The translations under genes were made by a program, and so were the position numbers. A stretch of 41,642 nucleotides of DNA from an uncultured Methanosarcinales archaeon (lineage in GTDB: Archaea > Nanobdellota > Nanobdellia > Woesearchaeales > CAZOXR01), in contig CAZMIO010000010.1 in NCBI GenBank assembly GCA_964566535.1, positions 1 through 41,642 on the forward strand, read 5' to 3'. Within the stretch, counting starts at the first letter, position 1. Every line of letters starts with the position of its first letter. Positions 2 to 22,800 of this stretch are shown one piece after another. The notes under the pieces are model-generated. The model ran no database searches. It saw only the letters and a program-made list of their open reading frames with translations, and was not told the origin of the DNA.

Positions 2-256
2 TCTGATGTTGAAGATGATCCAATGATGACGGAAGAGGGTGAAGAACTTGGTCCTACTATGGCTATTGGTTTACATGGAGGAGTTTCATATGAGCTTGCT
101 CCTGGAATTACAGTAGACTTAGTTGCAGCTGGTATGTTTGGTGGTGAACGTACTGATGGATCGTATACATCTTATAGTGGAAAGAGACAAACTAGATACG
201 ACAGTGACCTTATTGCTAGAATTGCTGCTGAATTCGGCGTTAAAGTTGAGTTTTAG
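2..256 (+). CDS. 5'-truncated hypothetical protein with beta-strand-like C-terminus ending in Phe
   Basis: Frame is open from the window edge. Alternating hydrophobic segments (GLHGGVSYEL, ITVDLVA, AAEFGVKVEF*). Confidence 0.6.
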   Translation, partial: SDVEDDPMMTEEGEELGPTMAIGLHGGVSYELAPGITVDLVAAGMFGGERTDGSYTSYSGKRQTRYDSDLIARIAAEFGVKVEF

Positions 257-412
257 GTAAATTTATTTTTTTCTTTTAATTTGTTTTAATATTAATTCTA
301 TTGAATATTATGATTACGTTAACAAAATTCGCAAACTTTATATATCATAACTTCATCCTTTTTGTATGGAGAGAGAAGAAATGGGAGTTACTGTCTTCTC
401 ATTGAAATAAGA

Positions 413-778
413 ATGGTTAAACGGAAATTAAAGTCAATAATGCCAAGTTTAAGAGAAAAGAAACGTTATCTGGCATTTGAAGTTATGTCGAAGAGCTCTA
501 TAAATGGGTCTCATGTATATGATGCTATCCATGTTTCTTTGATTGAATTAATGGGTAATATGGAATCTGCTAAATCTAATATGAAGTTTATTGAAGAAAA
601 ATGGGATTCTAATAAACAGAAAGGGATAATTAGAGTTAATCACAAATATGTTGATCATCTTAAGGCTTCTTTAGCTTTGATTGACAATATTAATAAAGAA
701 GAAGTTATAGTAAGATCATTAGGAGTAAGTGGGATATTGAAGAAGGCCACTAATAAGTATGTCAGAGAAGCTTCTTAG
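413..778 (+). CDS. rnp2: Ribonuclease P protein component 2 (Pop5/Rpp14)
   Basis: PSLREKKRYLAFEV, GIIRVNH and RSLGVSGILKK motifs; upstream of psmA; ATG at 413 preferred. Confidence 0.92.
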   Translation: MVKRKLKSIMPSLREKKRYLAFEVMSKSSINGSHVYDAIHVSLIELMGNMESAKSNMKFIEEKWDSNKQKGIIRVNHKYVDHLKASLALIDNINKEEVIVRSLGVSGILKKATNKYVREAS

Positions 779-793
779 CTTATCTGAACATGA

Positions 794-814
794 TCAAAAA
801 TCTTCGATTTTTGA
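794..814. repeat. Short palindromic element TCAAAAATC-TTC-GATTTTTGA
   Basis: Perfect 9-bp inverted repeat; same family as 7804-7822, 10057-10073, 22075-22240 and 23667-23897. Confidence 0.8.
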
Positions 815-853
815 CATATAGCTAGTTAAAAAGAAGAGAGGAGGAAAATTAAA

Positions 854-1615
854 ATGCAACAACCAATGCCACATCAATTAATGGGATATGATAGAGCAAT
901 TACTATGTTCAGTCCTGATGGAAGACTGTTACAAGTTGAGTATGCAAAGAAAACAGTTAGACAAGGTTCTACTGCAATCGGATTTGCATGCAGTGATGGT
1001 GTACTATTAGTTACTGACAAAAGGATAGTTGATAGTTTAGTGGTTCCTGCTTCTGTTGAGAAGATTTTTCAGATAGATGATCATATTGGAGCATCTGCTT
1101 CAGGAATTTTGTCTGATGCTAGAGTTCTTATTGAAAGAGCTCAAGTTAAGGCACAACAACACAGAGTTACTTATGACAGTCCTATTGATACATTAACAGT
1201 TGTTAAGGATATATGCGATTTGAAACAAGTATGCACTCAATCTGGTGGGTTAAGACCTTTTGGAGTTTCAATTTTAGTTGCTGGTGTTGATAACGGCACT
1301 CCAAAATTGTTTGAAACTGATCCTACTGGAATTTTCTTTCAGTATAAGGCTACAGTAATAGGTGAAGGAGAAGTTGAGGTTGAGGAGATGTTACATAAAG
1401 AGTATAACGAGAACATGACAATTGACGAATGTTTGAAGTTAGCGCTAAAGGCTCTTAAGAAGTTTTTGGGAGATAACTTTAGCATTGAGCGAATAGATTC
1501 AGCTTATATCAGAAAAGGAGAAAGGAAATTTAAGAAATTTACTCCTGACGAAATATCTAAAGTAGGTTCTGGTGTAAAAGTTCCTGCTGGTAAAAAAGAT
1601 AAAAAAAAGAAGTAA
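854..1615 (+). CDS. psmA: Proteasome subunit alpha
   Basis: GYDRAITMFSPDGRLLQVEYA signature; RPFGVS. Confidence 0.98.
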   Translation: MQQPMPHQLMGYDRAITMFSPDGRLLQVEYAKKTVRQGSTAIGFACSDGVLLVTDKRIVDSLVVPASVEKIFQIDDHIGASASGILSDARVLIERAQVKAQQHRVTYDSPIDTLTVVKDICDLKQVCTQSGGLRPFGVSILVAGVDNGTPKLFETDPTGIFFQYKATVIGEGEVEVEEMLHKEYNENMTIDECLKLALKALKKFLGDNFSIERIDSAYIRKGERKFKKFTPDEISKVGSGVKVPAGKKDKKKK

Positions 1616-1624
1616 AAAAACAAA

Positions 1625-2326
1625 ATGACAAATGTCGATGAAGCAAGCATCGCAAAATTAAAGACACATGGTCAAAATTTTGAGATACTTGTTGACTCAG
1701 ATGCGGCTATTGCGTTGAAGGGGGGGCAGGCTATCGATATAGCAGACGTACTTGCTGTTCAGACAATTTACTCAGATGCAAAAAAAGGGTTGGAAGCACC
1801 TGAGGCTTCGATGAATCAGGTGTTTAAAACATCTGATCCGTTAGAGGTTGCAAAGATAATCATCCAAAAGGGAGATGTTCCGTTAACAACAGAGTACAAA
1901 GAAAAATTAAGAGAGACAAAAAAGAGACAGATCATAGATATGATAAGGAGAAATGCGGTTGATCCTAAAACGCACATTCCTCATCCAGCTACAAGAATTG
2001 AAGCTGCATTAGAGGAGGCGAAGTTTAGGGTTGATGAGTTTACTCCGTTGCCTAAACAAGTTGAAGAGGCAATAAAAAGCTTGAGGCCAATATTGGCAAT
2101 TAAGTTTGAAGTGAAGGAAATTGCTGTTAAAATCCCTGGGGATTTTGCGGCTAAATCATATTCAGTTTTAGCAAAGTTCGGAAAAAAATTGAGAGAAGAG
2201 TGGCAGAAAGACGGCAGCTATGTTGCAGTACTGGAAATGCCTGGTGGTCTTGAAGAAGACTTTCACACCCAGATGAATGCATTATGCCATGGAGATTGTG
2301 AAACAAAAGTATTGAAAACGAAGTGA
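1625..2326 (+). CDS. sdo1: Ribosome maturation protein SBDS/Sdo1
   Basis: NFEILVD, IYSDAKKG, PHPATRIEAAL; canonical position between psmA and rrp4. Confidence 0.95.
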   Translation: MTNVDEASIAKLKTHGQNFEILVDSDAAIALKGGQAIDIADVLAVQTIYSDAKKGLEAPEASMNQVFKTSDPLEVAKIIIQKGDVPLTTEYKEKLRETKKRQIIDMIRRNAVDPKTHIPHPATRIEAALEEAKFRVDEFTPLPKQVEEAIKSLRPILAIKFEVKEIAVKIPGDFAAKSYSVLAKFGKKLREEWQKDGSYVAVLEMPGGLEEDFHTQMNALCHGDCETKVLKTK

Positions 2327-2362
2327 AACTAAAGATTTACATTCGTCATAGGAGGTTATGAA

Positions 2363-3055
2363 ATGACAAACGAAGTATTAGTAAAAGACAAGGACATTGT
2401 TGTTCCTGGGGAATTATTAGCCGAAGGTATGGGCAATCTTCCTGGACAAGGTACGTATAGAGATGGAGAAAAGATTCTTGCAGCAAGGTTAGGATTAGTT
2501 CAAGTAGATGGAAGAACTATAAAGCTTAAACAATTAGCTGGAAGATATTTGCCTAAAACAGGAGATACAATAATCTGTAAGGTTTTTGAGGTTAATTTTA
2601 GTGGTTGGAGAGTTGAGACAAATTCTGCTTATCCTGCTATGTTATCGCTTAAAGATGCTACATCTAGCTTTATTCAGAGAGGAGCAGATCTTACACAATT
2701 TTATGATATTGGAGACAATGTTGTGTGTCAGGTAACAAATGTGACTTCTCAGAACTTAGTGGATGTTTCAATGAAGGGCCCTGGCCTTAGGAAGCTTGCT
2801 GGTGGTAGAATAATTGAAGTTAACACAAACAAAGTGCCTAGGATAATTGGGAAACAAGGCTCAATGATTCAAATGATTAAGGAAGCTACAAAATGTAATA
2901 TCACTGTTGGTCAGAACGGATTAGTTTGGATTGATGGAGATATTGATGGTGAGATAGTTGCTGTTGATGTGATTAAGAAAATAGAAGAAGAAGCACATCA
3001 GAGTGGACTTACTGACAGGATAAAAGAGTATTTATCAAAGGTCAAGGTGAAATAA
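2363..3055 (+). CDS. rrp4: Exosome RNA-binding subunit Rrp4 (S1+KH)
   Basis: IVVPGELL, KVPRIIGKQGSM (KH), GQNGLVWI. Confidence 0.96.
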   Translation: MTNEVLVKDKDIVVPGELLAEGMGNLPGQGTYRDGEKILAARLGLVQVDGRTIKLKQLAGRYLPKTGDTIICKVFEVNFSGWRVETNSAYPAMLSLKDATSSFIQRGADLTQFYDIGDNVVCQVTNVTSQNLVDVSMKGPGLRKLAGGRIIEVNTNKVPRIIGKQGSMIQMIKEATKCNITVGQNGLVWIDGDIDGEIVAVDVIKKIEEEAHQSGLTDRIKEYLSKVKVK

Positions 3056-3056
3056 A

Positions 3057-3770
3057 ATGGGTTATGATAAAAGAATAGACGATAGGAAAGTTGATGAGTA
3101 CAGAAAGGTTGAAGCTAAAGTTGGCGTGATAAAACGTGCTGATGGTTCTGCGTATTTTAAGATAGGAAATACGTGGGCTTATGCTGCTGTATATGGACCA
3201 AGGAATTTGTACCCTAAGTTCTTACAGAATCCTGAGAAAGGAATTTTGAGATGTCATTATAACATGATGCCTTTTTCATCTGGTGGAGACAGAGTAAGAC
3301 CAGGTGGATCAAGAAGGTCTAAGGAGATCTCGATGGTTACTAAGAATTCGTTGTTGCCGGTTTTGGACTTGAGTGAGTATCCAAATTCAGTTGTTGATGT
3401 TTTTATTGAACTGCCACAAACAGAGGCTGGTTCAAGATGTGCAGGTATAACTGCAGCTTCAATGGCTCTGGCAGATGCAGGATTACTTATGAAGGATTTA
3501 ATTTCTTCAGTATCTGTTGGAAGGGTTGATGACAAATTAGTTGTTGATTTAGATTATTATGAGGAGTCATATCCTGACGGGCCAGTTGCTGATGTTCCAT
3601 TGGCAATAATGCCAGGTACAGGTGAGATAACTTTACTTCAGATGGATGGAGAAGTTGAGAAGGATGACCTTAAGAAGCTACTTGACTTAGGAAAGAAAGC
3701 TTGTATGGAAATCTATGAAGTTCAAAAAAAAGCTCTTAAAGAAAGATATGAGCAAAAACAGGGTCGATAA
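3057..3770 (+). CDS. rrp41: Exosome subunit Rrp41 (RNase PH-like)
   Basis: RADGSAY, AVYGPR, SRRSKEIS, AGSR, LLQMDG. Confidence 0.96.
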   Translation: MGYDKRIDDRKVDEYRKVEAKVGVIKRADGSAYFKIGNTWAYAAVYGPRNLYPKFLQNPEKGILRCHYNMMPFSSGGDRVRPGGSRRSKEISMVTKNSLLPVLDLSEYPNSVVDVFIELPQTEAGSRCAGITAASMALADAGLLMKDLISSVSVGRVDDKLVVDLDYYEESYPDGPVADVPLAIMPGTGEITLLQMDGEVEKDDLKKLLDLGKKACMEIYEVQKKALKERYEQKQGR

Positions 3771-3772
3771 AA

Positions 3773-4552
3773 ATGATGAACAAAAACTTATACGGACACA
3801 TTTTAAAGGTTCTTAAATCAGGAAAGAGATTTGATGGCAGAGGCCTTACTGATTATAGGAAGATTAGTGTTGAGACTGGTGTTACAAAAACAGCGGAAGG
3901 TTCAGCTTTGGTTAGAATTGGAGAAACTGAAGTTATGGCTGGAGTTAAGTTGGAAGTTAGTAAACCATATCCTGACACACCAGACAAAGGTACTATAATT
4001 GTTGGAGCTGAACTATTGCCCTTGTCAAGTCCAGAATTTGAAACTGGACCGCCTGGAATTAAGGCTATTGAATTAGCTAGGGTTGTTGATAGAGGAGTTA
4101 GGGAGAGTGGCTTTTTAGATTTTAAGAAGATGTGCATTGAGGAAGGAGAAAAAGTATGGACAGCCTTAATTGATGTTTGTAGTATGAATGATGCTGGTAA
4201 TCTTATGGATGCATGTTACTTAGCTGCTTTTGCTGCTTTGAAGGATGTTAGATTACCTAAGTTTGATGGAGAGAAGCTTGATTATAAGGAAAAGACTAGC
4301 AAGAAGTTGCCTTTGTCTGCAGATGATCCTATATCAGTAACTGTTGTTAAGATTGGGGAACATATTTTAATCGATCCTACAATTGAAGAAGGGAAGGTTA
4401 TTGATGCAAGGATTACAGTAAACTCCAAGAAGGATGGCACACTATGCGCGCTACAGAAAGGAGAAGAGACTCCTTTGATGCCTGAAGAGATTGTTGAGAT
4501 GGTTGATTTGGCTGTTGAAAAGTCAAAAGAGCTAAGGGGGGCCATAAAATGA
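3773..4552 (+). CDS. rrp42: Exosome subunit Rrp42
   Basis: RFDGRGLTDYR, AEGSA, FETGPP, ELARVVDRGVRES. Confidence 0.96.
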   Translation: MMNKNLYGHILKVLKSGKRFDGRGLTDYRKISVETGVTKTAEGSALVRIGETEVMAGVKLEVSKPYPDTPDKGTIIVGAELLPLSSPEFETGPPGIKAIELARVVDRGVRESGFLDFKKMCIEEGEKVWTALIDVCSMNDAGNLMDACYLAAFAALKDVRLPKFDGEKLDYKEKTSKKLPLSADDPISVTVVKIGEHILIDPTIEEGKVIDARITVNSKKDGTLCALQKGEETPLMPEEIVEMVDLAVEKSKELRGAIK

Positions 4553-15341: not shown

Positions 15342-15671
15342 TTATTGAAATTTATTGTTATTGTTTTTTTCGAATATTATGCCTGATACTAATGATTGTG
15401 GGATGCAACTGTTGCCTATGAGTTTTGTTGGGTATTGAATGCATATTTTTGGTCTTGCTTTGTAGATCTTGCAGGATGACTGGGATTTTCCTTTTTTTAG
15501 GAATGTACACCATCCGTTTTTTTCTTTTATGTATGTAACGCCTCTGAAATCAGTTATTAGGAAATCTTGTTCTTTGTGTCCCGCTTTTATTATATTTTTT
15601 ATGTCTTCTTTGTAGAGCCTTGGACTGTGGCAGCACAGACCACATCTGTTGCATTTGAAGTCTTTGAGCAT
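15342..15671 (-). CDS. YkgJ-family Cys-cluster (Zn/Fe-chelating) protein
   Basis: FKCNRCGLCC, WCTFL, CKIYKARPKICIQYP. Confidence 0.88.
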   Translation of the reverse strand: MLKDFKCNRCGLCCHSPRLYKEDIKNIIKAGHKEQDFLITDFRGVTYIKEKNGWCTFLKKGKSQSSCKIYKARPKICIQYPTKLIGNSCIPQSLVSGIIFEKNNNNKFQ

Positions 15672-15738
15672 CAAAGGATGACAATGTTAGTAATATTTAA
15701 GTGTTTGGATTTAAATAATTGTTAGAATTTGGCTATAG

Positions 15739-16254
15739 TTATGTACACATGCATTGTTTGAATGTTTGGCCACAATAAGCGCTGCCTATATCGTCTCCTG
15801 ATTCTCCGCCGCATATTCCTGTTTGGTATCCTGATTTTTTACATTGTTGAGAACATCCAGGAAACATACACCCTTCACTTGCACAGATGAAATGTATGTT
15901 GTATTGTAAACAATCATTATCTTCCTTACATGGCTGAGGACTACATACACACATGGAATTATCTTCGCAGTATCTGCGTCCTGCTGGGTCACCTAGTTCT
16001 GCGCCACATTCCCCTGTGGTGCTTGATGTACTTTGACAGAAATCCATGCATGTTGGTGCACAAACACAAGAGGTTGAAGGATCTTCGCAAGATTCTCTTC
16101 CTAATTCATGGTCTATTGTTGATAATGGTTCTGTTCTGCAACGTCCTTTTGGAAATCCATCTTCCTTGCAGAGATCATCACATGATTTTTCGCATCCAGA
16201 GACAATTACAATTAATGCAGCTAACGATAAAAGCAGAAGGAATCTTTTTTTCAT
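15739..16254 (-). CDS. Cys-rich secreted lipoprotein with three defensin-like repeats
   Basis: VSGC lipobox; three CxxxC-x7-GxC...C...CxC units. Confidence 0.75.
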   Translation of the reverse strand: MKKRFLLLLSLAALIVIVSGCEKSCDDLCKEDGFPKGRCRTEPLSTIDHELGRESCEDPSTSCVCAPTCMDFCQSTSSTTGECGAELGDPAGRRYCEDNSMCVCSPQPCKEDNDCLQYNIHFICASEGCMFPGCSQQCKKSGYQTGICGGESGDDIGSAYCGQTFKQCMCT

Positions 16255-16334
16255 CTTAAGGTGTTTCTTGTGTTTAGATTATATAAATGTTCCTTTTAGT
16301 AAAGTTATTAAACTGTTGTTGTTTAATTTTTTTA

Positions 16335-16991
16335 ATGGTAAAAGATGTTGCTAAGGTTATTGGAATATTGAAGAAAGAGTCTAAGAAATTTAAAAAACCT
16401 TTTGTTTCTGATTGGGCCGAGATTGTTAAGAGTCCGTATACTACGCTTATTTCTTGTTTGTTGAGTTTGAGGACAAAGGATGATGTTACTGCTAAGGCTT
16501 CACTTCGGTTGCTTAAGGGTAATAGGACCCCTGAGAAAGTTTTGAAACTGTCGGTTAAGAAGATTGAGAAGTTGATTTATCCTGTTGGTTTTTATCGGAC
16601 TAAGGCTAGGAGGATAAAGGAGATTTCCAAGGTTTTGATTGATAAATATAAGAGTAAGGTTCCAAAAGATTTTGACGAACTAATGAAACTCAAGGGCGTG
16701 GGGAAGAAGACGGCTGCAATAACTATGGTTTATGGGCACCAAAAAGCTGATTTTATACCAGTTGATGTTCATGTGCATGTGATTGCGAATAGATTAAATT
16801 GGGTTAAAACCAAAACTCCTGATGAAACCATGGATGATCTTATGAAAGTTGTTCCTAAGAGATATTGGTATGACCTAAATGATTTATTTGTACAATTTGG
16901 TCAAAATGTATGCGTAACTATCTCCCCTAAATGTTCAATTTGTCCAATAAATGAATTATGTCCAAAAGTTAATGTTACGAATAGGAGATAG
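16335..16991 (+). CDS. nth: Endonuclease III (HhH-GPD DNA glycosylase with 4Fe-4S)
   Basis: LLSLRTKD, YPVGFYRTKA, LKGVGKKTA (HhH), VDVHV, C-x6-C-x2-C-x5-C. Confidence 0.95.
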   Translation: MVKDVAKVIGILKKESKKFKKPFVSDWAEIVKSPYTTLISCLLSLRTKDDVTAKASLRLLKGNRTPEKVLKLSVKKIEKLIYPVGFYRTKARRIKEISKVLIDKYKSKVPKDFDELMKLKGVGKKTAAITMVYGHQKADFIPVDVHVHVIANRLNWVKTKTPDETMDDLMKVVPKRYWYDLNDLFVQFGQNVCVTISPKCSICPINELCPKVNVTNRR

Positions 16992-17004
16992 GTTGTATAG
17001 CAAA

Positions 17005-18180
17005 TTAAGTTATAAGGCTATATTCTCCAAATTTAAGGTTTTCTATTTTATTATTTATTCTGAGTGATTTTAAAAGGTAGTACATTCTATCTTCGTTAAT
17101 ATTTAGTTCTCTTGCTAGATCCCCTAATATGATTGTTTTTCTTTTACTTAAAATCTCAATTATCTTATTTCTAAAATATTCTGCTTCTTTTTTTTGTTTT
17201 ATTACTAAGGTATCTATAGATCTTATCTTATCATCAAATTCTTTATCTTTATGCCAAAAACCTAGTAATTTGTCGTTATATCTGGCTATGCAATTTTTAA
17301 CATCTTTATTAAAACTTAGGGCCCCTTCCGACCATAGTAAAACCTCATATACATCTGTTTCACGATACTTACCGAAGCAATAACCTTTCCATCTTTTATG
17401 GTTAACTTTACCTCTTTTGTAGCCTAAACTGTCTATTATCTTAGCTATAGCTTCTATAATTTTTCTATCAACCATCCTAATACTTTTAGTTGATATGGCT
17501 CCTTCATCTACATATAAAGCAACTAAAGCTTGGATTCTATACTCTTTTGGAAGAACCAATAATTTTTCTAAAAAAAGTTCTGAATTTATCTCTTGTATAT
17601 TTATATTAAGACAAAAAGCCACAACTTTTACAAAAATCATTGGCACCCTTATATCTTGAAAAAATTCATATTTTCCTCTTCTAAACCTGTGGTAGTCTTT
17701 AATTGTTAGGTCTCCGTTTGGTTTTATCAGAGATAGAATAAGGGAATTCATACATTGAACACCTGCTTTTTGACCATATCTGTATCCACTATCACAAATA
17801 CTTCCATCCCCTATTACATGTGAAACAATTCTTATTATCTTAGGGTCGATGGTTAGAGGGAAAATATTTTGATAAGTTCGATTGTATGCTCCTGTTTTGG
17901 AGTCTCTGAATAGTTCAATATGTTCTTCGATATAATTTTTTTCTAAATTAAGATGATTTGTTAATTCTATTATTTTTAAAATATTACTGAATCCACCTTT
18001 ACAAAGTGCAGATATAGATTTTCTTCCTAGTGAGACTTTACTTTGAAAGTTGTTAAAAGATTTATACTTTCTTATGATCAGTTTGGTGATTTCCCCTCTA
18101 ATCTCTTTATCTAATTTAACATATATATTTATGTCCCAAGCATGGACTATCATGTTTTGAAAATAAACCTCTTTTTTCAT
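17005..18180 (-). CDS. Free-standing double-motif LAGLIDADG endonuclease-like protein with C-terminal wHTH
   Basis: IVSHVIGDGS and ALVALYVDEG helices; C-terminal LGDLARELNI...YYLLKSL HTH. Start 18180 is 28 nt from a TATA box; an alternative start at 18273 has a GGAGG RBS. Confidence 0.75.
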   Translation of the reverse strand: MKKEVYFQNMIVHAWDINIYVKLDKEIRGEITKLIIRKYKSFNNFQSKVSLGRKSISALCKGGFSNILKIIELTNHLNLEKNYIEEHIELFRDSKTGAYNRTYQNIFPLTIDPKIIRIVSHVIGDGSICDSGYRYGQKAGVQCMNSLILSLIKPNGDLTIKDYHRFRRGKYEFFQDIRVPMIFVKVVAFCLNINIQEINSELFLEKLLVLPKEYRIQALVALYVDEGAISTKSIRMVDRKIIEAIAKIIDSLGYKRGKVNHKRWKGYCFGKYRETDVYEVLLWSEGALSFNKDVKNCIARYNDKLLGFWHKDKEFDDKIRSIDTLVIKQKKEAEYFRNKIIEILSKRKTIILGDLARELNINEDRMYYLLKSLRINNKIENLKFGEYSLIT

Positions 18181-18216
18181 ATTTCTTGAGATAGTATCCT
18201 TATTTAAATACCTTTC

Positions 18217-18243
18217 GAGGGTGTTTGTCCAGTGGGTCGTGGT
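18217..18243 (-). promoter_or_regulatory. Conserved motif (ACCACGACCCACTGGACAAACACCCTC) upstream of TATA, copy 1
   Basis: 26/27 identical to 41503-41529; TTTAAA begins at 18208 on the minus strand. Confidence 0.7.
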
Positions 18244-18419
18244 TAATTTTTTGTTATTTTTCTCTAATTTCATTTAAATTACCTCCAAAATATTTAAAAT
18301 TTTCATGTGTTTTACTTGTAGTGGAGTTCTCTTATTTCTTTTAGTTTCCTAAACAAAAGAATTAAGTTGGAATGAAGCGTTAAGAAGGAAAATTTTGTTT
18401 TTGGAAGTAACAATTGAAG

Positions 18420-18515
18420 TTTGGTCAGAATGTTTGTGTTCCTGTTAGTCCGTTTTGCTCTAAGTGCCCTATTTTTAAGTTTTGTAAGGGGGTGGGGGTT
18501 GAACGGAGTAGGTAG
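18420..18515 (+). pseudogene. nth: Displaced 3' fragment of endonuclease III
   Basis: Manual translation FGQNVCVPVSPFCSKCPIFKFCKGVGVERSR*; no start codon and an in-frame TAA at 18408. Confidence 0.85.
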
Positions 18516-19254
18516 TTTTTGATAACTGGTTACATACAGAGTTTGCTATTGTTTTTAGATTTATTATGTCTTCTTCATTGTATTCTACTAAGAGGTTTAT
18601 GTAGTGGTCGTCCCCAGTTGATTTGTACATTTTCCAGAGGGTAACTGCGTCTCCTCCGTGGAAGCTGTCTACTAGGTCTCTTCTTTTTATGTCGAATTGT
18701 TTTTCTATATTTTTTAATCCGCCGGTTAGGTTTAATTTTTTGCATGCATGCCTTAGGTCTAGGTGGGGGATGTCTGGGAGAATGTCTGGGTGTCTTTTTC
18801 TGATGAATGGTAGGTCGAATGAGGCTCCGTTGAATGTAACCATTAGTTTGTATTTTTGAAGTTCTTGTTTTAGCGCTTCCGGGTTAAGGTTAATTCCTTG
18901 TATCATTGTTTTTGTTGTGATGCCGTCGTAAAGTCCGACTACTGTTATGTCATCGTATGAGGAGAGGCCTGTTGTTTCTATGTCTAGGAAGACTGCGTCT
19001 TCTTTGAAGTAGTTGTATAGTCTCCATGTTTCTGTTGATGGGAGAATGTTTTTGAAGTGAGCTGAGTTTTGTTGATATAATGCTGCCCTTGCTTTTAGAA
19101 TTTGTCTGTCGTAGTAGGGCTTTCTTTGTTTTGAGATTCTTTTTATGTTGTCTGTTTGTAGGAATGAATCCCAGTCGGTAATTCCCTGATTCCAGATGTG
19201 TTGTTCTGTTTTTTTGTTGACTTTTTCTAAGAAGATGTATGAGTTTCTGATCAT
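18475..19254 (-). CDS. YprB-like RNase H-fold (DEDD) 3'-5' exonuclease
   Basis: FLDIETTG, TFNGASFDLP, HLDL, GGLKNIE, YNEED. Confidence 0.9.
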   Translation of the reverse strand: MIRNSYIFLEKVNKKTEQHIWNQGITDWDSFLQTDNIKRISKQRKPYYDRQILKARAALYQQNSAHFKNILPSTETWRLYNYFKEDAVFLDIETTGLSSYDDITVVGLYDGITTKTMIQGINLNPEALKQELQKYKLMVTFNGASFDLPFIRKRHPDILPDIPHLDLRHACKKLNLTGGLKNIEKQFDIKRRDLVDSFHGGDAVTLWKMYKSTGDDHYINLLVEYNEEDIINLKTIANSVCNQLSKTTYSVQPPPPYKT

Positions 19255-19293
19255 CAATTCTTTTTTGATGAATTGGTTTAAATATTTGTTGGT

Positions 19294-19312
19294 GGTGTTT
19301 GTCCAGTGGGTT
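19294..19312 (-). promoter_or_regulatory. Conserved motif AACCCACTGGACAAACACC upstream of TATA, copy 2
   Basis: 19/19 identical to 41506-41524; TTTAAA begins at 19282; overlaps the hisF stop. Confidence 0.7.
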
Positions 19313-20066
19313 ATTCCCTAACACAAACTTTTTGTTTTTTTAGGAAATCCTTTACGTCTTTGACTGTGTGTTTGTTGTAATGGAAGATTGAGGCTGCTAG
19401 TGCGGCATCTGCTTTTCCTTTTTTGAAGCCGTCTTCGAAATGTTTTAAGTTTCCAACTCCTCCTGATGCTATTACTGGTACGTTGACTGCTTCTGAGATT
19501 GTTTTTGTTAGGTTTAGTTCGAAACCAATTTTTGTTCCGTCTCTGTCCATTGAAGTTAATAGGATTTCTCCTGCGCCTAGCCTTACTGCTTTTTTTGCCC
19601 ACTCGACTGCATCAATTCCTGTTGCTTTTCTTCCGCCGTAAGTATAGACTTCCCATGAATTACCTTTCTTTTTTGCATCGATTGCTAGAACTATGCATTG
19701 AGAGCCGAACTTTTTTGAGGCTTCTTTGAGAAGGTCTGGGTTTTCTACAGCTGCTGTGTTTATGCTTACCTTGTCTGCTCCTGCGTTTAATGTGTCTCTG
19801 ATGTCCTTTAAGTTTCTTATCCCTCCTCCGACTGTGAATGGGATGAATATTTGTTTAGCTACATTTTTTATTATGTCAATCATTGACTTTCTTTTGTCGG
19901 ATGATGCGGTTATGTCTAAGAAAACTAATTCGTCAGCTCCTTGTTTGTTGTATTCTTTGGCTAACTCTACTGGGTCTCCTGCGTCTTTTATGTTGACGAA
20001 CTTTTCTCCTTTTACAACTCGTCCTTTGTCGACGTCCATGCATGGTATAATTCTTTTTGATAACAT
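19311..20066 (-). CDS. hisF: Imidazole glycerol phosphate synthase cyclase subunit
   Basis: [50 protein letters not shown]. Confidence 0.97.
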
Positions 20067-20088
20067 TTTATTTTGGTTTTTGTTTTCT

Positions 20089-20234
20089 CCAATACGATTA
20101 ATTTGGTTTTCCAATGGTTAAATTTTTTGTAAATATTTTTTATCAATACGTTATTAATTGTTTTCCATTAGTTATTCTCTTTTTATTTTAAATAAAGACG
20201 GTGTAATGTTTGCAATTTCTTTACAGAAATTGCA
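20089..20234. repeat. Bipartite dispersed repeat, copy 2
   Basis: Matches 15161-15236; has a degenerate internal copy at about 20144-20174 and a TGCAATTTCT-TTAC-AGAAATTGCA hairpin over the HAD stop. Confidence 0.85.
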
Positions 20235-20829
20235 TTAATTCCTTTAAGTCTTTAATCTTTTTGTTTCCACCGTTGACATTTAATCCAATTGTGAATATTT
20301 CTGCGTTTTTTCCGGCTGAAATGTCGGTTTTAGTATCTCCTATGAAGATTGCGTTCTCTTTTTCTATGTTTAGGTCTTTTAGTGCTTTGAAGATGATGTC
20401 TGGTTCCGGTTTTCCTACTTCTACGTCGTCTGCACAGGCAAACGTATTAAAGTATTTGTGAAGTTTTATTTTTTTAAGTGTTTCTTCTGCTTGTTCATGG
20501 TAAGTGTTTGTTACGACTGCTGTTTTGATCTTTTTTTCTTTTAGTTTTTTTAGTGTTTGTTCTACATTTGGAAGTATTTTGATGTGTTTATCAAACTCAA
20601 GGAAATTTTCTTGATAGTAATCTGCTACTTCGTTTATGTCTATCTCTGGGAAGTATTTTGGGATGATAATTGATGAATCAATTGCCCAGCAGTTTTTTAT
20701 GAATTCTTTCTTTGTTACTGTTTTGAAATTGAAATTTGCTAGTGCTCCATTGAATACATGGAACCATGCTTCGAATGAGTCTATTAATACTCCGTCCATG
20801 TCGAATAATACTGCTTTGATGTTGTTCAT
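20221..20829 (-). CDS. HAD-superfamily phosphatase
   Basis: FDMDGVLID, VVTN, KPEPD, FIGDTKTD. Confidence 0.93.
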   Translation of the reverse strand: MNNIKAVLFDMDGVLIDSFEAWFHVFNGALANFNFKTVTKKEFIKNCWAIDSSIIIPKYFPEIDINEVADYYQENFLEFDKHIKILPNVEQTLKKLKEKKIKTAVVTNTYHEQAEETLKKIKLHKYFNTFACADDVEVGKPEPDIIFKALKDLNIEKENAIFIGDTKTDISAGKNAEIFTIGLNVNGGNKKIKDLKELMQFL

Positions 20830-20854
20830 TTTTGTCTCTTGTTGTCTATTCTTT

Positions 20855-21454
20855 TTATTTTATGTTAACGAAGTTCTTTAATACTTTTAATCCGAGTTCT
20901 CCGCTTCTTTCTGGGTGGAATTGGACTGCGAAGATGTTGTCATGCTCAATCCCGCTTGTGAAGTCAATTCCGTAATCTGTTTTTGTTAGGATGATTGAAT
21001 TGTCCTCTGGTTGGACGTAATAGGAGTGTACGAAGTAGAAATAGGAGTTGTCTTTTATTCCTTTTAATAGTTTTGAGCTGTCTTTTTGGATTTTGATTGA
21101 ATTCCAGCCTATTTGGGGAATTTTTAGTTTGGTGAACTTCTTTACTTCCCCTTTGAATATGTTTAATCCTGAAATTCCTTTGTTCTCTTCACTTTTTTCG
21201 AATAGGGCTTGAAGTCCTAGGCAGATGCCTAGGTATGGTTTTTGGGTTAATGACTCTTTTATTGCTTTGTTTAGGCTGTTTTTTTCTAAAGAAGTCATCA
21301 TATCTCCAAAGGAACCGACTCCTGGGAAGATTATTTTTTCAGCTGATTCTATGTCTTCTGGTTTGTTTGTTATTTTACTGTCTACTTTTAGAAAATCTAG
21401 TGCGTTTTTTACTGATTTTAGGTTTCCTGCCCCATAATCAATTATTGCTATCAT
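20855..21454 (-). CDS. hisH: Imidazole glycerol phosphate synthase glutaminase subunit
   Basis: IDYGAGNLKSV, PGVGSF, GICLG, YFVHSY, QFHPE. Confidence 0.97.
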   Translation of the reverse strand: MIAIIDYGAGNLKSVKNALDFLKVDSKITNKPEDIESAEKIIFPGVGSFGDMMTSLEKNSLNKAIKESLTQKPYLGICLGLQALFEKSEENKGISGLNIFKGEVKKFTKLKIPQIGWNSIKIQKDSSKLLKGIKDNSYFYFVHSYYVQPEDNSIILTKTDYGIDFTSGIEHDNIFAVQFHPERSGELGLKVLKNFVNIK

Positions 21455-21611
21455 GTATTGTAATGTGCTGTATAACTTTATTTAAAGGTTGCTCTTTAGA
21501 AAATGGAATAGAATAAAAATTGTCAGAATCTTCCATGGCTGGTAACTGGTGGTTTGGACCAATATTCGCCTTTAGGTAATTTCTGACATATTATTGGAAA
21601 TTTGTAAGATA

Positions 21612-21884
21612 TTAAGTTTTGGTTTCCATTCCGTGCTTAATTGACATGATTTGTAATAGTTTTAGAGCGTTAACTTCTTTTTTTAGATCATCTATGTGGT
21701 CTTTAAGTTCGTGGATAAGTTCGTAATTGTGCTGAACATTATTGGCATTTTCTTCGACTATTGTAGAAACATCGGTAATTTGGGAGAATTCTGACCTAAT
21801 CTGCTTTATCCAAGCATCAACATTTTCTTTGAAATCAAACATATCTTTTTCCATTTTTTTTGTGAAAATTGAGGGGACAGTCAT
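21612..21884 (-). CDS. Small coiled-coil hypothetical protein (start at 21884, 21854 or 21842)
   Basis: Heptad pattern in NVQHNYELIHELKDHIDDLKKEVNALK. Confidence 0.75.
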   Translation of the reverse strand: MTVPSIFTKKMEKDMFDFKENVDAWIKQIRSEFSQITDVSTIVEENANNVQHNYELIHELKDHIDDLKKEVNALKLLQIMSIKHGMETKT

Positions 21885-22063
21885 TAATTGGCATATTACA
21901 GAGGTTAACTATGGTTTGTAGGTTGTCCTCACCTATGCCATGACTGTCCCTTTCAAATGTGATTTATGTGTGAAAGGGAGAGACAGTCAAAATCGATGGC
22001 ATATTACAGAGGTTAACTATGGTTTGTAGGTTGTCCTCACCTATGCCTTTTGACTGTCTCTTT
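21869..22063. ncRNA. Two tandem structured elements (51-bp identical core in covarying outer stems); candidate cis-regulatory RNA
   Basis: 21889-21939 = 21997-22047; nested stems GACAGTCA/TGACTGTC, GGCATA/TATGCC, GAGG/CCTC. Confidence 0.6.
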
Positions 22064-22074
22064 AATGTCATATA

Positions 22075-22240
22075 ATCAGAAGTGTTCAACACTCCTGAGT
22101 ATGCTCAAAAACATTTAGATTCTTTTGTCATATCCAAGATTTTTGACCTTGGGTAGGCTCAAAAACACTAAAACGTTTTTGACATATCAGAAACAAAAGT
22201 GGTTTCTGACTATGCTCAAAAACAATATTGTTTTTGACAT
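22075..22240. repeat. BIME-like array of alternating short palindromes (three A-B doublets)
   Basis: A = ATCAGAA..TCTGA; B = ATGCTCAAAAAC..TTTTTGACAT. Confidence 0.8.
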
Positions 22241-22655
22241 ATTAGTATAGTTATTAGTATATTAGTAGTATATAAAGGTTTCTATTATACACCACTCTGT
22301 AATATATATTTTGTAGTGTAGTGGTTTTTAGGTAAAAAATGTTTTAATTTGCGATATTTAATGGAATCACGTCGAGGAATTGGGGATGAGGGTTATGTTT
22401 TTTTGGTTGTTGGCGGTGTTTTTTTGGCCCTAAACTTGGTTGAGAAGGAATGGATTTTGGTTGATTTTGGTGGGTTTAGAGGGTCTTGTTTGGATTGGTT
22501 TAGGTAATAGCAAGAATGTTTGAGGTAGTTAATTTGGTTGATGTTGGTTGTAATCTGTTTTTGAGTTGTTTTGTGGTCGGTAATTGAGAAATCATAGAAA
22601 CATTTAAATAAAAAGTTCTCAAGAGTTAAAGATGTAATTATATTGTTATGATTAG

Positions 22656-22800
22656 TGTCAAAAACCACTCTGCTAAATCATGGTGGCATGTGAATTATGC
22701 CACTAACATGTTAAGTGGTTTTTGAGCATGCTCAGAATACCACTTATTATTTGTGGTTTACAGAGTAAACCACCATTCTTAAGATGGTGGTATTCCGACA
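22656..22800 (+). repeat. Composite palindromic element, copy in the parA 5' leader
   Basis: TGTCAAAAACCAC...GTGGTTTTTGAGCATGCTCAGAAT...ATTCCGACA; inverted relative to the 23620 and 33499 copies. Confidence 0.8.

Follow-up and report, generated by a model that had tools for sequence, protein, structure and literature searches.

The DNA considered here, referred to as the window, is a stretch of 41,642 nucleotides (nt) on contig CAZMIO010000010.1, and all coordinates are window positions on its forward strand. The host is a marine DPANN-type (Woesearchaeota-type) archaeon whose genome comprises 1.45 Mb in 37 contigs and is 91% complete. Near the middle of the window lies nth, which encodes the DNA-repair enzyme endonuclease III, followed by a long antisense open reading frame (ORF) and then by a second, unattached copy of the 3' end of nth (Table 1). 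The features of this locus suggest a homing element that is carried by neither an intron nor an intein, and that consists of a LAGLIDADG endonuclease gene, a spacer and a replacement 3' part of nth. The nth ORF, taken mechanically, extends from 16287 to 16991, and its likely start at 16335 yields a protein of 218 residues that matches the Pfam families HhH-GPD (E = 3.1e-24) and HHH (E = 5.5e-07). The Pfam model for the iron-sulfur segment, EndIII_4Fe-2S, scores 20.1 bits, just below its cut-off of 20.5. A whole-genome search found no second nth paralogue, and the genome contains one full nth and the tail fragment.

The attached tail of nth comprises 32 codons including the stop (16896–16991) and reads FGQNVCVTISPKCSICPINELCPKVNVTNRR*. 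Exactly 1524 bp downstream, on the same strand and of the same length, the unattached tail reads FGQNVCVPVSPFCSKCPIFKFCKGVGVERSR*, and its four Cys residues are all present with the spacing C-X6-C-X2-C-X5-C. Similarity between the two copies sets in abruptly at 16896 and 18420, with 13 of the first 14 nt identical, and then drops to 52 of 96 nt overall; no similarity is found in the 60 nt upstream of these two positions. Comparison of the 32 codons gives 6 that are identical, 13 with synonymous differences and 13 with non-synonymous differences. When the two flanks of the antisense ORF are compared in six frames, the score is 106, while the maximum of 20 shuffles is 48. The preliminary description of this DNA had reported a start-less second tail with this position, orientation, length and set of cysteines, as well as a common beginning followed by divergence, and both observations are confirmed. 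The stranded tail shares its final 41 nt with the end of a YprB-like gene on the opposite strand. This overlap suggests that nth and the YprB-like gene once had overlapping convergent ends, and that the YprB-like gene constrains the last 13 codons of the stranded tail, a part that has probably been preserved because of the overlap.

Table 1. Features of the nth locus, with further features of the window and of related loci. Positions of related loci are given within the interval named in the row; G000 is the genome of the host itself.
Feature	Position	Strand	Description
nth (endonuclease III), intact, apparently chimeric	16335–16991	+	Pfam HhH-GPD, HHH; sole full nth of the genome
Putative recipient-lineage 5' part of nth	16335–16631	+	residues 1 to about 99; follows P0020; host G/T-ending codons
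Putative donor-lineage 3' part of nth (co-converted tract), including attached tail	16632–16991	+	follows P0014/P0015; left limit approximate, 16630–16650
Free-standing two-motif LAGLIDADG homing endonuclease gene (predicted)	17005–18273	-	422 amino acids; helical N-terminus resembling a helix-turn-helix (HTH), C-terminal winged helix; AlphaFold2 model and structural matches
AT-rich spacer upstream of endonuclease gene, right end of inserted block	18274–18419	-	GC 0.26
Stranded, putatively original nth 3' end	18420–18515	+	31 codons and stop; without start codon or upstream nth sequence; 29/31 to P0020; host codon style
YprB-like RNase_H_2 gene	18475–19257	-	Pfam PF13482, E = 1.3e-37
Cys-rich ORF	15739–16254	-	171 amino acids
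Intergenic repeat cluster	21889–22245		
Direct 78-nt copies	21889–21966, 21997–22074		first 51 nt identical
Three copies of a 39-nt unit	22096–22245		spacing 54–57 nt
L002 (G000:C3:172911-176669), ArsP-type permease gene	181–1320	+	duplicate score 169, shuffles 44
L002, paralogue of the endonuclease gene	1312–2274	-	
L002, stranded permease tail	about 2377–2481	+	
L088 (G000:C2:112500-118000), archaeal Nre gene	3049–4296	-	duplicate score 66, shuffles 47
L088, endonuclease gene	1764–2909	-	
L088, stranded Nre tail	about 1680–1751	-	
L089 (G000:C4:25500-30500), family member in pieces	2140–2592, 1463–1900	-	
L077 (G078:C13:43950-47477), endonuclease ORF	967–2136	+	duplicate score 100, shuffles 55
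L077, glmS	from 2133	+	

The origin of the two tails has been probed by comparison with other nth products. P0020, an intact 218-residue nth product from another metagenome, ends FGQNICVPVSPFCSKCPIFKFCKRVGVERSR, and its tail is identical to the stranded copy at 29 of 31 positions compared with 17 of 31 for the attached copy. P0014 and P0015, which are the closest homologues over the whole protein (77% identity), have the unusual SPKCS of the attached tail and match that tail at 23 and 22 of 31 positions, respectively. Among the tails of the 120 best nth homologues, 73 are nearer to the stranded copy and 35 nearer to the attached copy (three of the latter being the window's own protein or its fragments), while 9 are tied and 3 lack the motif. 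The nearest genomes are distant: the best nth match among 401 species-representative genomes of the order, a sample without the source genomes of P0014, P0015 and P0020, is 68% identical, and all relatives in the first search, except G001, come from other families. The nth of G001, which belongs to the same family, is cut by a contig end, and its tail agrees with the stranded copy at 21 of 31 positions versus 18 for the attached copy; the corresponding values for G038, which has the closest full nth among the genomes compared (67% identity), are 23 and 16. Judging from these comparisons, the stranded tail is the ancestral end of nth. It had been predicted that relatives would end like 18420–18515, and the tails of P0020, G001 and G038 are indeed nearer to that copy than to the attached one. 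The accompanying prediction, that relatives would show nth convergent on the YprB gene, was not borne out, as downstream gene order differs in G001 and G038. The genes that follow nth in these two genomes are unrelated to the YprB-like gene, and synteny was dropped as evidence.

The affinity of nth changes within the gene. In successive blocks of 31 residues, identities to P0020 are 26, 28, 27, 20, 19, 19 and 17, while those to P0014 are 18, 26, 23, 26, 26, 25 and 23. Informative sites are those at which the window nth agrees with one of two compared proteins and not with the other. The first 18 of these favor P0020 over P0014 by 16:2, and the first 25 favor P0020 over P0015 by 20:5; the remaining 33 favor P0014 by 29:4 and, likewise, P0015 by 29:4. 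The breakpoint falls between residues 92–99 and 104–107, or about 16630–16650 in the window, and the maximum chi-square of 28.8 (P0014) or 27.0 (P0015) was reached by 0 of 2000 permutations.

Codon usage divides the gene in the same way. Codons ending in A number 13 of 99 in the 5' part of nth (16335–16631) and 1 of 31 in the stranded tail, compared with 35 of 119 in the 3' part (16632–16988; p = 0.005 against the 5' part) and 12 of 31 in the attached tail (Fisher p = 0.0011 versus the stranded tail). The corresponding counts for codons ending in G are 37 of 99, 10 of 31, 22 of 119 (p = 0.002 against the 5' part) and 2 of 31. An impression formed by eye in the preliminary description, that the stranded copy has the host's codon style while the attached copy is richer in A, is thereby substantiated, since the stranded tail resembles the 5' part of nth. 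Base composition is low in the inserted block, as the endonuclease gene has a G+C content of 0.288 compared with 0.352 for the whole window, and G+C dips to 0.24–0.33 over 17000–18350. The region also displays an asymmetry at third positions: between 16335 and 20114, third positions in the 5' part of nth are 83% G/T on the plus strand, and those of the minus-strand genes are approximately 80% A/C. The plus strand is therefore G+T-rich whichever strand is coding, which makes a foreign tract easily visible.

Codon style gives the same answer as the breakpoint test, and does so independently. Based on these two lines of sequence evidence, nth is a chimera whose 3' part derives from another lineage. 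In combination with the arrangement of the tails, this suggests that approximately 1.8 kb, comprising the 3' half of nth and the endonuclease gene, arrived by gene conversion. The claim that the element replaced the 3' end of nth is upheld, with the amendment that the replaced tract amounts to approximately the 3' 55% of the gene and not only the last 32 codons.

The antisense ORF is the only long ORF between the two nth tails. It lies on the strand opposite to nth and beyond the nth stop codon, and is borne by neither an intron nor an intein. In agreement with the earlier remark that such features are missing, an Rfam scan of 16000–19000 at E ≤ 1 gave two far sub-threshold chance matches and no intron family. 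The sequence GGAGGT is located 8 nt before the ATG at 18273, and a TTTAAATA-like box occurs farther upstream in the spacer, which presumably holds the promoter of the endonuclease gene. An alternative start, M32 at 18180, is favored by the homologues, which begin at its equivalent, while the start at 18273 is favored by GGAGGT; both remain candidates. A collection of 5.8 billion proteins contains 10 homologues besides the ORF product itself, 5 of which are 63–67% identical and full length; none of the 10 carries a LAGLIDADG Pfam family, and one carries HTH_3. A family profile retrieves 559 clusters (50% identity) at E ≤ 0.001 and 267 at E ≤ 1e-10. In a 12-sequence alignment the conserved motifs are R-I-V-x-H-x-I-G-D-G-S and Q-A-L-x-A-L-x-V-D-E-G, the ends of which read ...HVIGDGS and ...LYVDEGA in the window ORF. 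Asp156 is conserved in at least 90% of the aligned family members, and Asp256 and Glu257 in 12 of 12.

The structure of the ORF product was modeled with AlphaFold2 from the family alignment (mean predicted local distance difference test score 84.3; predicted template modeling score 0.78), and only residues 1–38 are disordered in the model. Helices at residues 144–154 and 243–257 are each followed by β-hairpins, and the N-terminal region is made up of short helices. Leading matches in a Foldseek search of the PDB are WhiA (E = 2.7e-05), many I-DmoI entries, PI-SceI, the bI3 maturase and I-SceI. VIA-align places residues 141–354 on PI-PfuI with a Z of 15.6 (174 residues; root-mean-square deviation, rmsd, 2.7) and on I-DmoI with a Z of 15.4 (167 of 192 residues; rmsd 3.1), while residues 360–422 match winged-helix domains (Z of approximately 11; rmsd 1.1–1.4). 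The best match in a profile search of PDB sequences is also I-DmoI, although this match is weak (E = 0.05); it aligns I-DmoI Glu117 with Glu257, and residue 117 is the position mutated in PDB entry 5a0w, 'I-DmoI E117A'. Asp156 would correspond to Asp21 of I-DmoI. According to the model, the product is a two-motif, monomeric-type LAGLIDADG enzyme in which both catalytic acidic positions are intact. The AlphaFold2 model, Foldseek and VIA-align agree with the initial reading of the ORF as an antisense gene with two LAGLIDADG-like helices and a winged helix-turn-helix. Pfam gave no Hint or zinc-finger family for the ORF, and Pfam and NCBIfam scans found no integrase or transposase family in the inserted block.

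Other members of this endonuclease family are found in comparable settings. Six-frame comparison of the flanks, scored against shuffles, detected two copies of a gene end bracketing the endonuclease gene at 6 of the 37 family loci tested, the window included. L063 was not counted, as its score of 120 lies close to shuffles of up to 109 in low-complexity sequence, and L045, L054 and L076 fell outside the test, because a contig end truncates the endonuclease gene or one of its flanks. The genome of the host itself contains three further loci. At L002, a paralogue of 320 residues that is 25% identical to the window ORF converges on a gene for an ArsP-type permease, and the two permease tails differ over their 33 shared codons by approximately 21 synonymous changes and 1 non-synonymous change. 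Since nearly all of these differences are synonymous, both ends appear to have diverged under selection in separate lineages. At L088, a family member of 381 residues is located just downstream of the archaeal gene Nre on the same strand as its target, and the tail signal is weaker. At L089, an N-terminal piece of 150 residues (profile match E = 1.6e-8) is accompanied by a separate piece of 145 residues that resembles the C-terminal part, and this locus is probably a decaying copy.

Duplication of the 3' end was also observed for Nre at L068 (score 136, shuffles 44) and for the gene for ribosomal protein L15e (rpL15e) at L043 (96, shuffles 45). L077 is a mirror image of these arrangements: about 75 codons from the former start of glmS run in frame into the endonuclease ORF, and an entire glmS, equipped with a new 5' end, comes next. 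This layout suggests that the family swaps 5' ends as well. A search for similar in-frame host fusions among 11 representatives with long N-termini and 2 close homologues supported none (Pfam matches were HTH_3 in one and a weak DUF6262 in another).

Based on Pfam assignments of neighboring genes, family members are nearly always located immediately beside the end of a conserved gene. These neighbors are the 3' end of Nre (6 loci, including L051 from the unpublished genome G315), the 5' end of an Obg-like GTPase gene (5 loci), the 3' end of nth (4 loci: the window, L039, L087 and L073), the 3' end of the L15e gene (3 distinct elements), the 5' end of class I tRNA synthetase genes (3 loci), an M48 peptidase gene (3 loci), and the 5' end of a UDP-glucose dehydrogenase gene, the 5' end of glmS and the 3' end of EndA (2 loci each). 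In a maximum-likelihood tree of 42 family proteins, grouping follows the target gene and not the host family. The target label changes 15 times on the tree, compared with a mean of 26.0 for shuffled labels, and 0 of 200 shuffles matched this value; labels were assigned from adjacency and are shared by kin, so that the count describes clustering and not rates. The window ORF groups with P0002, P0005 and P0006 and then with L039, which converges on nth (support 98/92). The distribution of the family is patchy, with members in 38 of 401 sampled genomes of the order (a tally that includes the unpublished G315 and G182) and in 34 of 258 genera, and frameshifts are present in the members at L040, L044 and L047. 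This combination of patchy spread, conserved targets and decaying copies is what the life cycle of a homing endonuclease gene is expected to produce.

The arrangement of the locus has also been examined in other assemblies. A further public record, L042 (7165 bases), matches 15554–22718 of the window with 100% identity, and 16300–19000 is present, at least partly, in 20 listed runs from 15 studies of seawater, marine and hydrothermal-vent metagenomes; 3 of these runs may be the source sample itself. Run X4, from a different study, contains contigs over 16687–17031 and 17037–18719 with 0 differences each, so that the junctions at 16896 and 18420 are each bridged independently. These contigs and L042 settle the question of a chimeric assembly, which had been raised in the preliminary description as a means of refutation, and an assembly chimera is excluded for practical purposes. 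Four runs (X4, X14, X15 and X18) were mapped onto the stretch at the contig level; parts of the stretch lack contig cover in X14, X15 and X18, which carries no information. Contigs of a related organism in X4, X15 and X18 match the 5' sequence of nth as far as 16626 or 16822, and their next match is at 18422–18442 (the depth of the X18 contig is 46.5). These contigs resume at the start of the stranded tail and not of the attached tail, and continue in frame with ..PISPFCSKCS... Such joints are supporting evidence and not proof. Contig depth also spikes at 19426–19576 in all four runs (maximum 137, in X4), where a short segment of a hisF-like gene is conserved; this most likely reflects the recruitment of contigs from other organisms and is not a feature of this genome.

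These findings suggest a mechanism in which the enzyme would first cut an element-free nth close to the codons for the conserved FGQN(V/I)C, with which the iron-sulfur loop begins. Next, the break would be repaired from an element-bearing chromosome, and the endonuclease gene and the spacer would be copied along with the donor's 3' part of nth. One crossover would fall inside nth, here near codon 100, while the opposite broken end would pair with the nth fragment beyond the endonuclease gene, which would serve as a homology arm. The outcome would be a working chimeric nth (its own 5' part joined to the donor's 3' part), an endonuclease gene, and the recipient's own former tail stranded at 18420–18515. 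The replacement 3' part would be resistant to cutting; its tail differs from the stranded copy at 44 of 96 nt and could thereby escape recognition. The analysis shows the layout, the fold with its conserved catalytic residues, the ancestry of the two tails, the chimerism of nth, the foreign codon style of the tract, the recurrence of the layout at other genes and the endonuclease clades that follow their targets, whereas an active enzyme, the position of its cut and a resistant attached tail are inferences. Very probably, the region from approximately 16632 to 18419 is a homing element without intron or intein, composed of a LAGLIDADG gene, a spacer and a replacement 3' part of nth.

Several observations weigh against this interpretation. 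The LAGLIDADG models of Pfam and NCBIfam do not match the ORF, and Pfam at E ≤ 0.1 gives only two unrelated sub-threshold matches. The top Foldseek match, WhiA, is a non-catalytic LAGLIDADG-plus-HTH regulator. No duplicate is detectable above shuffles at 31 of the 37 family loci. Retention of 13 of the first 14 nt at the attached junction implies that resistance would depend on positions farther 3', or that the site is asymmetric. The sampled 'parents' of nth are distant (87% identity to P0020 in the 5' part and approximately 80% to P0014 in the 3' part), which indicates that the true donor and recipient are unsampled. Finally, the joint in the related organism's contigs rests on 21 matching letters on one side, with the sequence between not given, and a high-identity joint from 16895 to 18420 is absent from the contigs of X4, X14, X15 and X18, although contigs drop rare variants.

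Some of these observations would also fit an element that arrived as proposed and is now a fixed relic, decaying and either inactive or without sensitive alleles to cut. The contigs of the four runs contain no element-free allele of the strain, the element-bearing form occurs in the runs of many studies, most loci have no duplicate, and decayed members of the family are known, both among the frameshifted ORFs and as the copy in pieces on contig C4 of the same genome. In contrast, the window ORF is intact at 422 residues with both catalytic acidic residues and all domains, its close homologues are also full length, and the stranded tail is still an open frame of 31 codons in the host's codon style. 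A relic is unlikely.

The match to WhiA and the silence of the Pfam endonuclease models, together with a C-terminal domain of helix-turn-helix type as in WhiA, raise the prospect that the ORF encodes a domesticated WhiA-like LAGLIDADG/HTH regulator beside nth, and that the duplication of the tail was an unrelated local event. This is very improbable, as both catalytic acidic positions are conserved and VIA-align gives a Z of 11.2–13.5 for WhiA, below the 15.4–15.6 obtained for true endonucleases. Furthermore, a regulator does not account for the patchy distribution of the family, for the duplicated gene ends that flank its members at five other, unrelated genes, for clades that track target genes across host families, or for an nth that is chimeric exactly up to the ORF.

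Ordinary decay, in which a tandem duplicate or second nth paralogue shrank until 32 codons were left and an unrelated gene came to lie between the copies, draws on the shortness of the fragment and on the partial gene duplicates that replication errors do yield. The sharp boundary of similarity without any trace of upstream nth, the likeness of relatives to the fragment and not to the attached tail, and the foreign codon style and phylogenetic affinity of the attached 3' half make this extremely improbable; the genome is also without the second nth paralogue that the preliminary description had named as a sign of such decay. Bacteria are known to harbor integrative elements that bring along a substitute gene end, and contigs of metagenome-assembled genomes can be chimeric, but an integrase-type element inserted at the 3' end with a substitute end, or an assembly chimera, has a practically negligible probability given a block of approximately 1.8 kb with one ORF and no integrase or transposase family found, junctions that recur without differences in contigs of an independent study and in another record, and a stretch that is present in 20 runs of 15 studies. 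Accordingly, assembly chimera, second paralogue and integrase-type element were rejected on the basis of the bridged junctions, the single nth and the missing integrase family.

Two other features of the window are recorded for completeness. The Cys-rich ORF upstream of nth has a signal- or lipoprotein-like N-terminus, raises the local G+C content to 0.42, and matches no Pfam family above threshold. An intergenic repeat cluster contains two direct copies of one unit followed by three copies of a shorter one (Table 1). ARAGORN found no tRNA in the whole window.

The proposed homing element can be compared with several known systems. WHO elements have been described in the yeasts Torulaspora and Lachancea, where cleavage of FBA1 by WHO6 has been shown (Coughlan et al.). 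Both WHO elements and the window element combine an endonuclease gene with a replacement 3' part of the target (resistance-conferring in WHO) and involve no intron or intein splicing. In both, the target is chimeric with discordant 5' and 3' histories, and the former 3' end persists as a fragment beyond the endonuclease gene, where it is a proposed homology arm. In contrast, WHO proteins are described as intein–zinc finger fusions, while the window protein has an HTH-like N-terminus and a winged helix, without a Pfam Hint or zinc-finger match. The hosts differ as well (diploid yeast versus a DPANN-type archaeon), the window endonuclease gene is antisense to its target, and the targets of its family are numerous and include a 5' end that is swapped (glmS, L077). 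In mechanism, therefore, the window element is an analogue of WHO elements, but it does not belong to the WHO protein family.

A second comparison is provided by the mobile ORFs (mORFs) of fungal mitochondria. Published reports describe 'gene hybrids' made by mORFs in Glomus atp6, atp9, cox2 and nad3, with atp6 of Allomyces macrogynus cited there (Beaudet et al. 2013, PMC3630166), and partial C-terminal duplications of atp6 and cob with homing endonuclease ORFs in Endoconidiophora resinifera (PMC6279837). The fungal mitochondrial precedent named in the preliminary description is accurate but incomplete, as nuclear yeast WHO elements also belong there. In the mORF cases, a foreign C-terminal segment arrives with an inserted endonuclease ORF, the native C-terminus lies downstream and is nearer to close relatives, and horizontal transfer of the inserted end is inferred, all of which resembles the window element. 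These mORFs are organellar and often in phase with the host gene. In contrast, the window ORF runs opposite to its target and has an upstream region of its own, it lies on a cellular archaeal chromosome and at a DNA-repair gene, and the converted tract reaches approximately 260 nt upstream of the duplicated part.

I-DmoI (intron-encoded) and PI-PfuI (intein-encoded) share with the window protein a two-domain LAGLIDADG core, predicted in the latter, with an acidic residue ending each motif. The window gene differs from both in its position outside an intron or intein, in its additional N- and C-terminal domains of DNA-binding type, and in the lack of a Pfam LAGLIDADG match. Phage free-standing endonucleases such as T4 SegF and mobE are, to our knowledge, located between genes and carry no duplicate replacement gene end; they belong to the GIY-YIG or HNH families, not to LAGLIDADG. 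The likeness lies in phage 'intronless homing', in which a free-standing endonuclease gene is reported to spread with its flanks by gene conversion after cutting genomes that do not contain the gene (PMC2790892).

The window element very probably represents an archaeal, chromosomal, LAGLIDADG-based counterpart of the WHO and mORF elements. No description of an end-replacing free-standing homing endonuclease in archaea was found in the full-text literature, a search whose coverage excludes most subscription journals. Archaeal homing endonuclease genes are known from rRNA and tRNA introns and from inteins, and overwriting of a target's end by a free-standing endonuclease gene, with the target kept functional, has been documented for the yeast and fungal mitochondrial elements. 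The balance of the evidence leans towards a wider proposal, in which the window element is one representative of a family of LAGLIDADG homing elements that swap gene ends in Woesearchaeota-type (DPANN) archaea, a family that is both large (at least 559 clusters at 50% identity) and unannotated. Within it, every clade would specialize in one end, 3' or 5', of a particular conserved gene (nth, Nre, rpL15e, Obg-like GTPase, glmS, class I tRNA synthetases, UDP-glucose dehydrogenase, EndA or ArsP permease). The family would then represent the first chromosomal prokaryotic counterpart of WHO, a recurrent source of chimeric housekeeping genes, and direct evidence that lineages 20–25% apart in protein sequence exchange and recombine chromosomal DNA, a process that is otherwise hard to show for uncultured symbiotic archaea.

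If this proposal is correct, it would account for short 'orphan' gene-end fragments and for unannotated ORFs of 320–450 residues in DPANN genomes, and the approximate targets of many new long-target nucleases could be read from genome layout. Single-gene trees of nth, Nre, L15e, glmS and other targets in these lineages may be chimeric, which would affect phylogenomics, as L15e, a ribosomal protein, is of a type included in marker sets. Homing requires donor and recipient DNA in one cell, so that these elements would act as natural markers by which DNA exchange among uncultured archaeal lineages can be traced.

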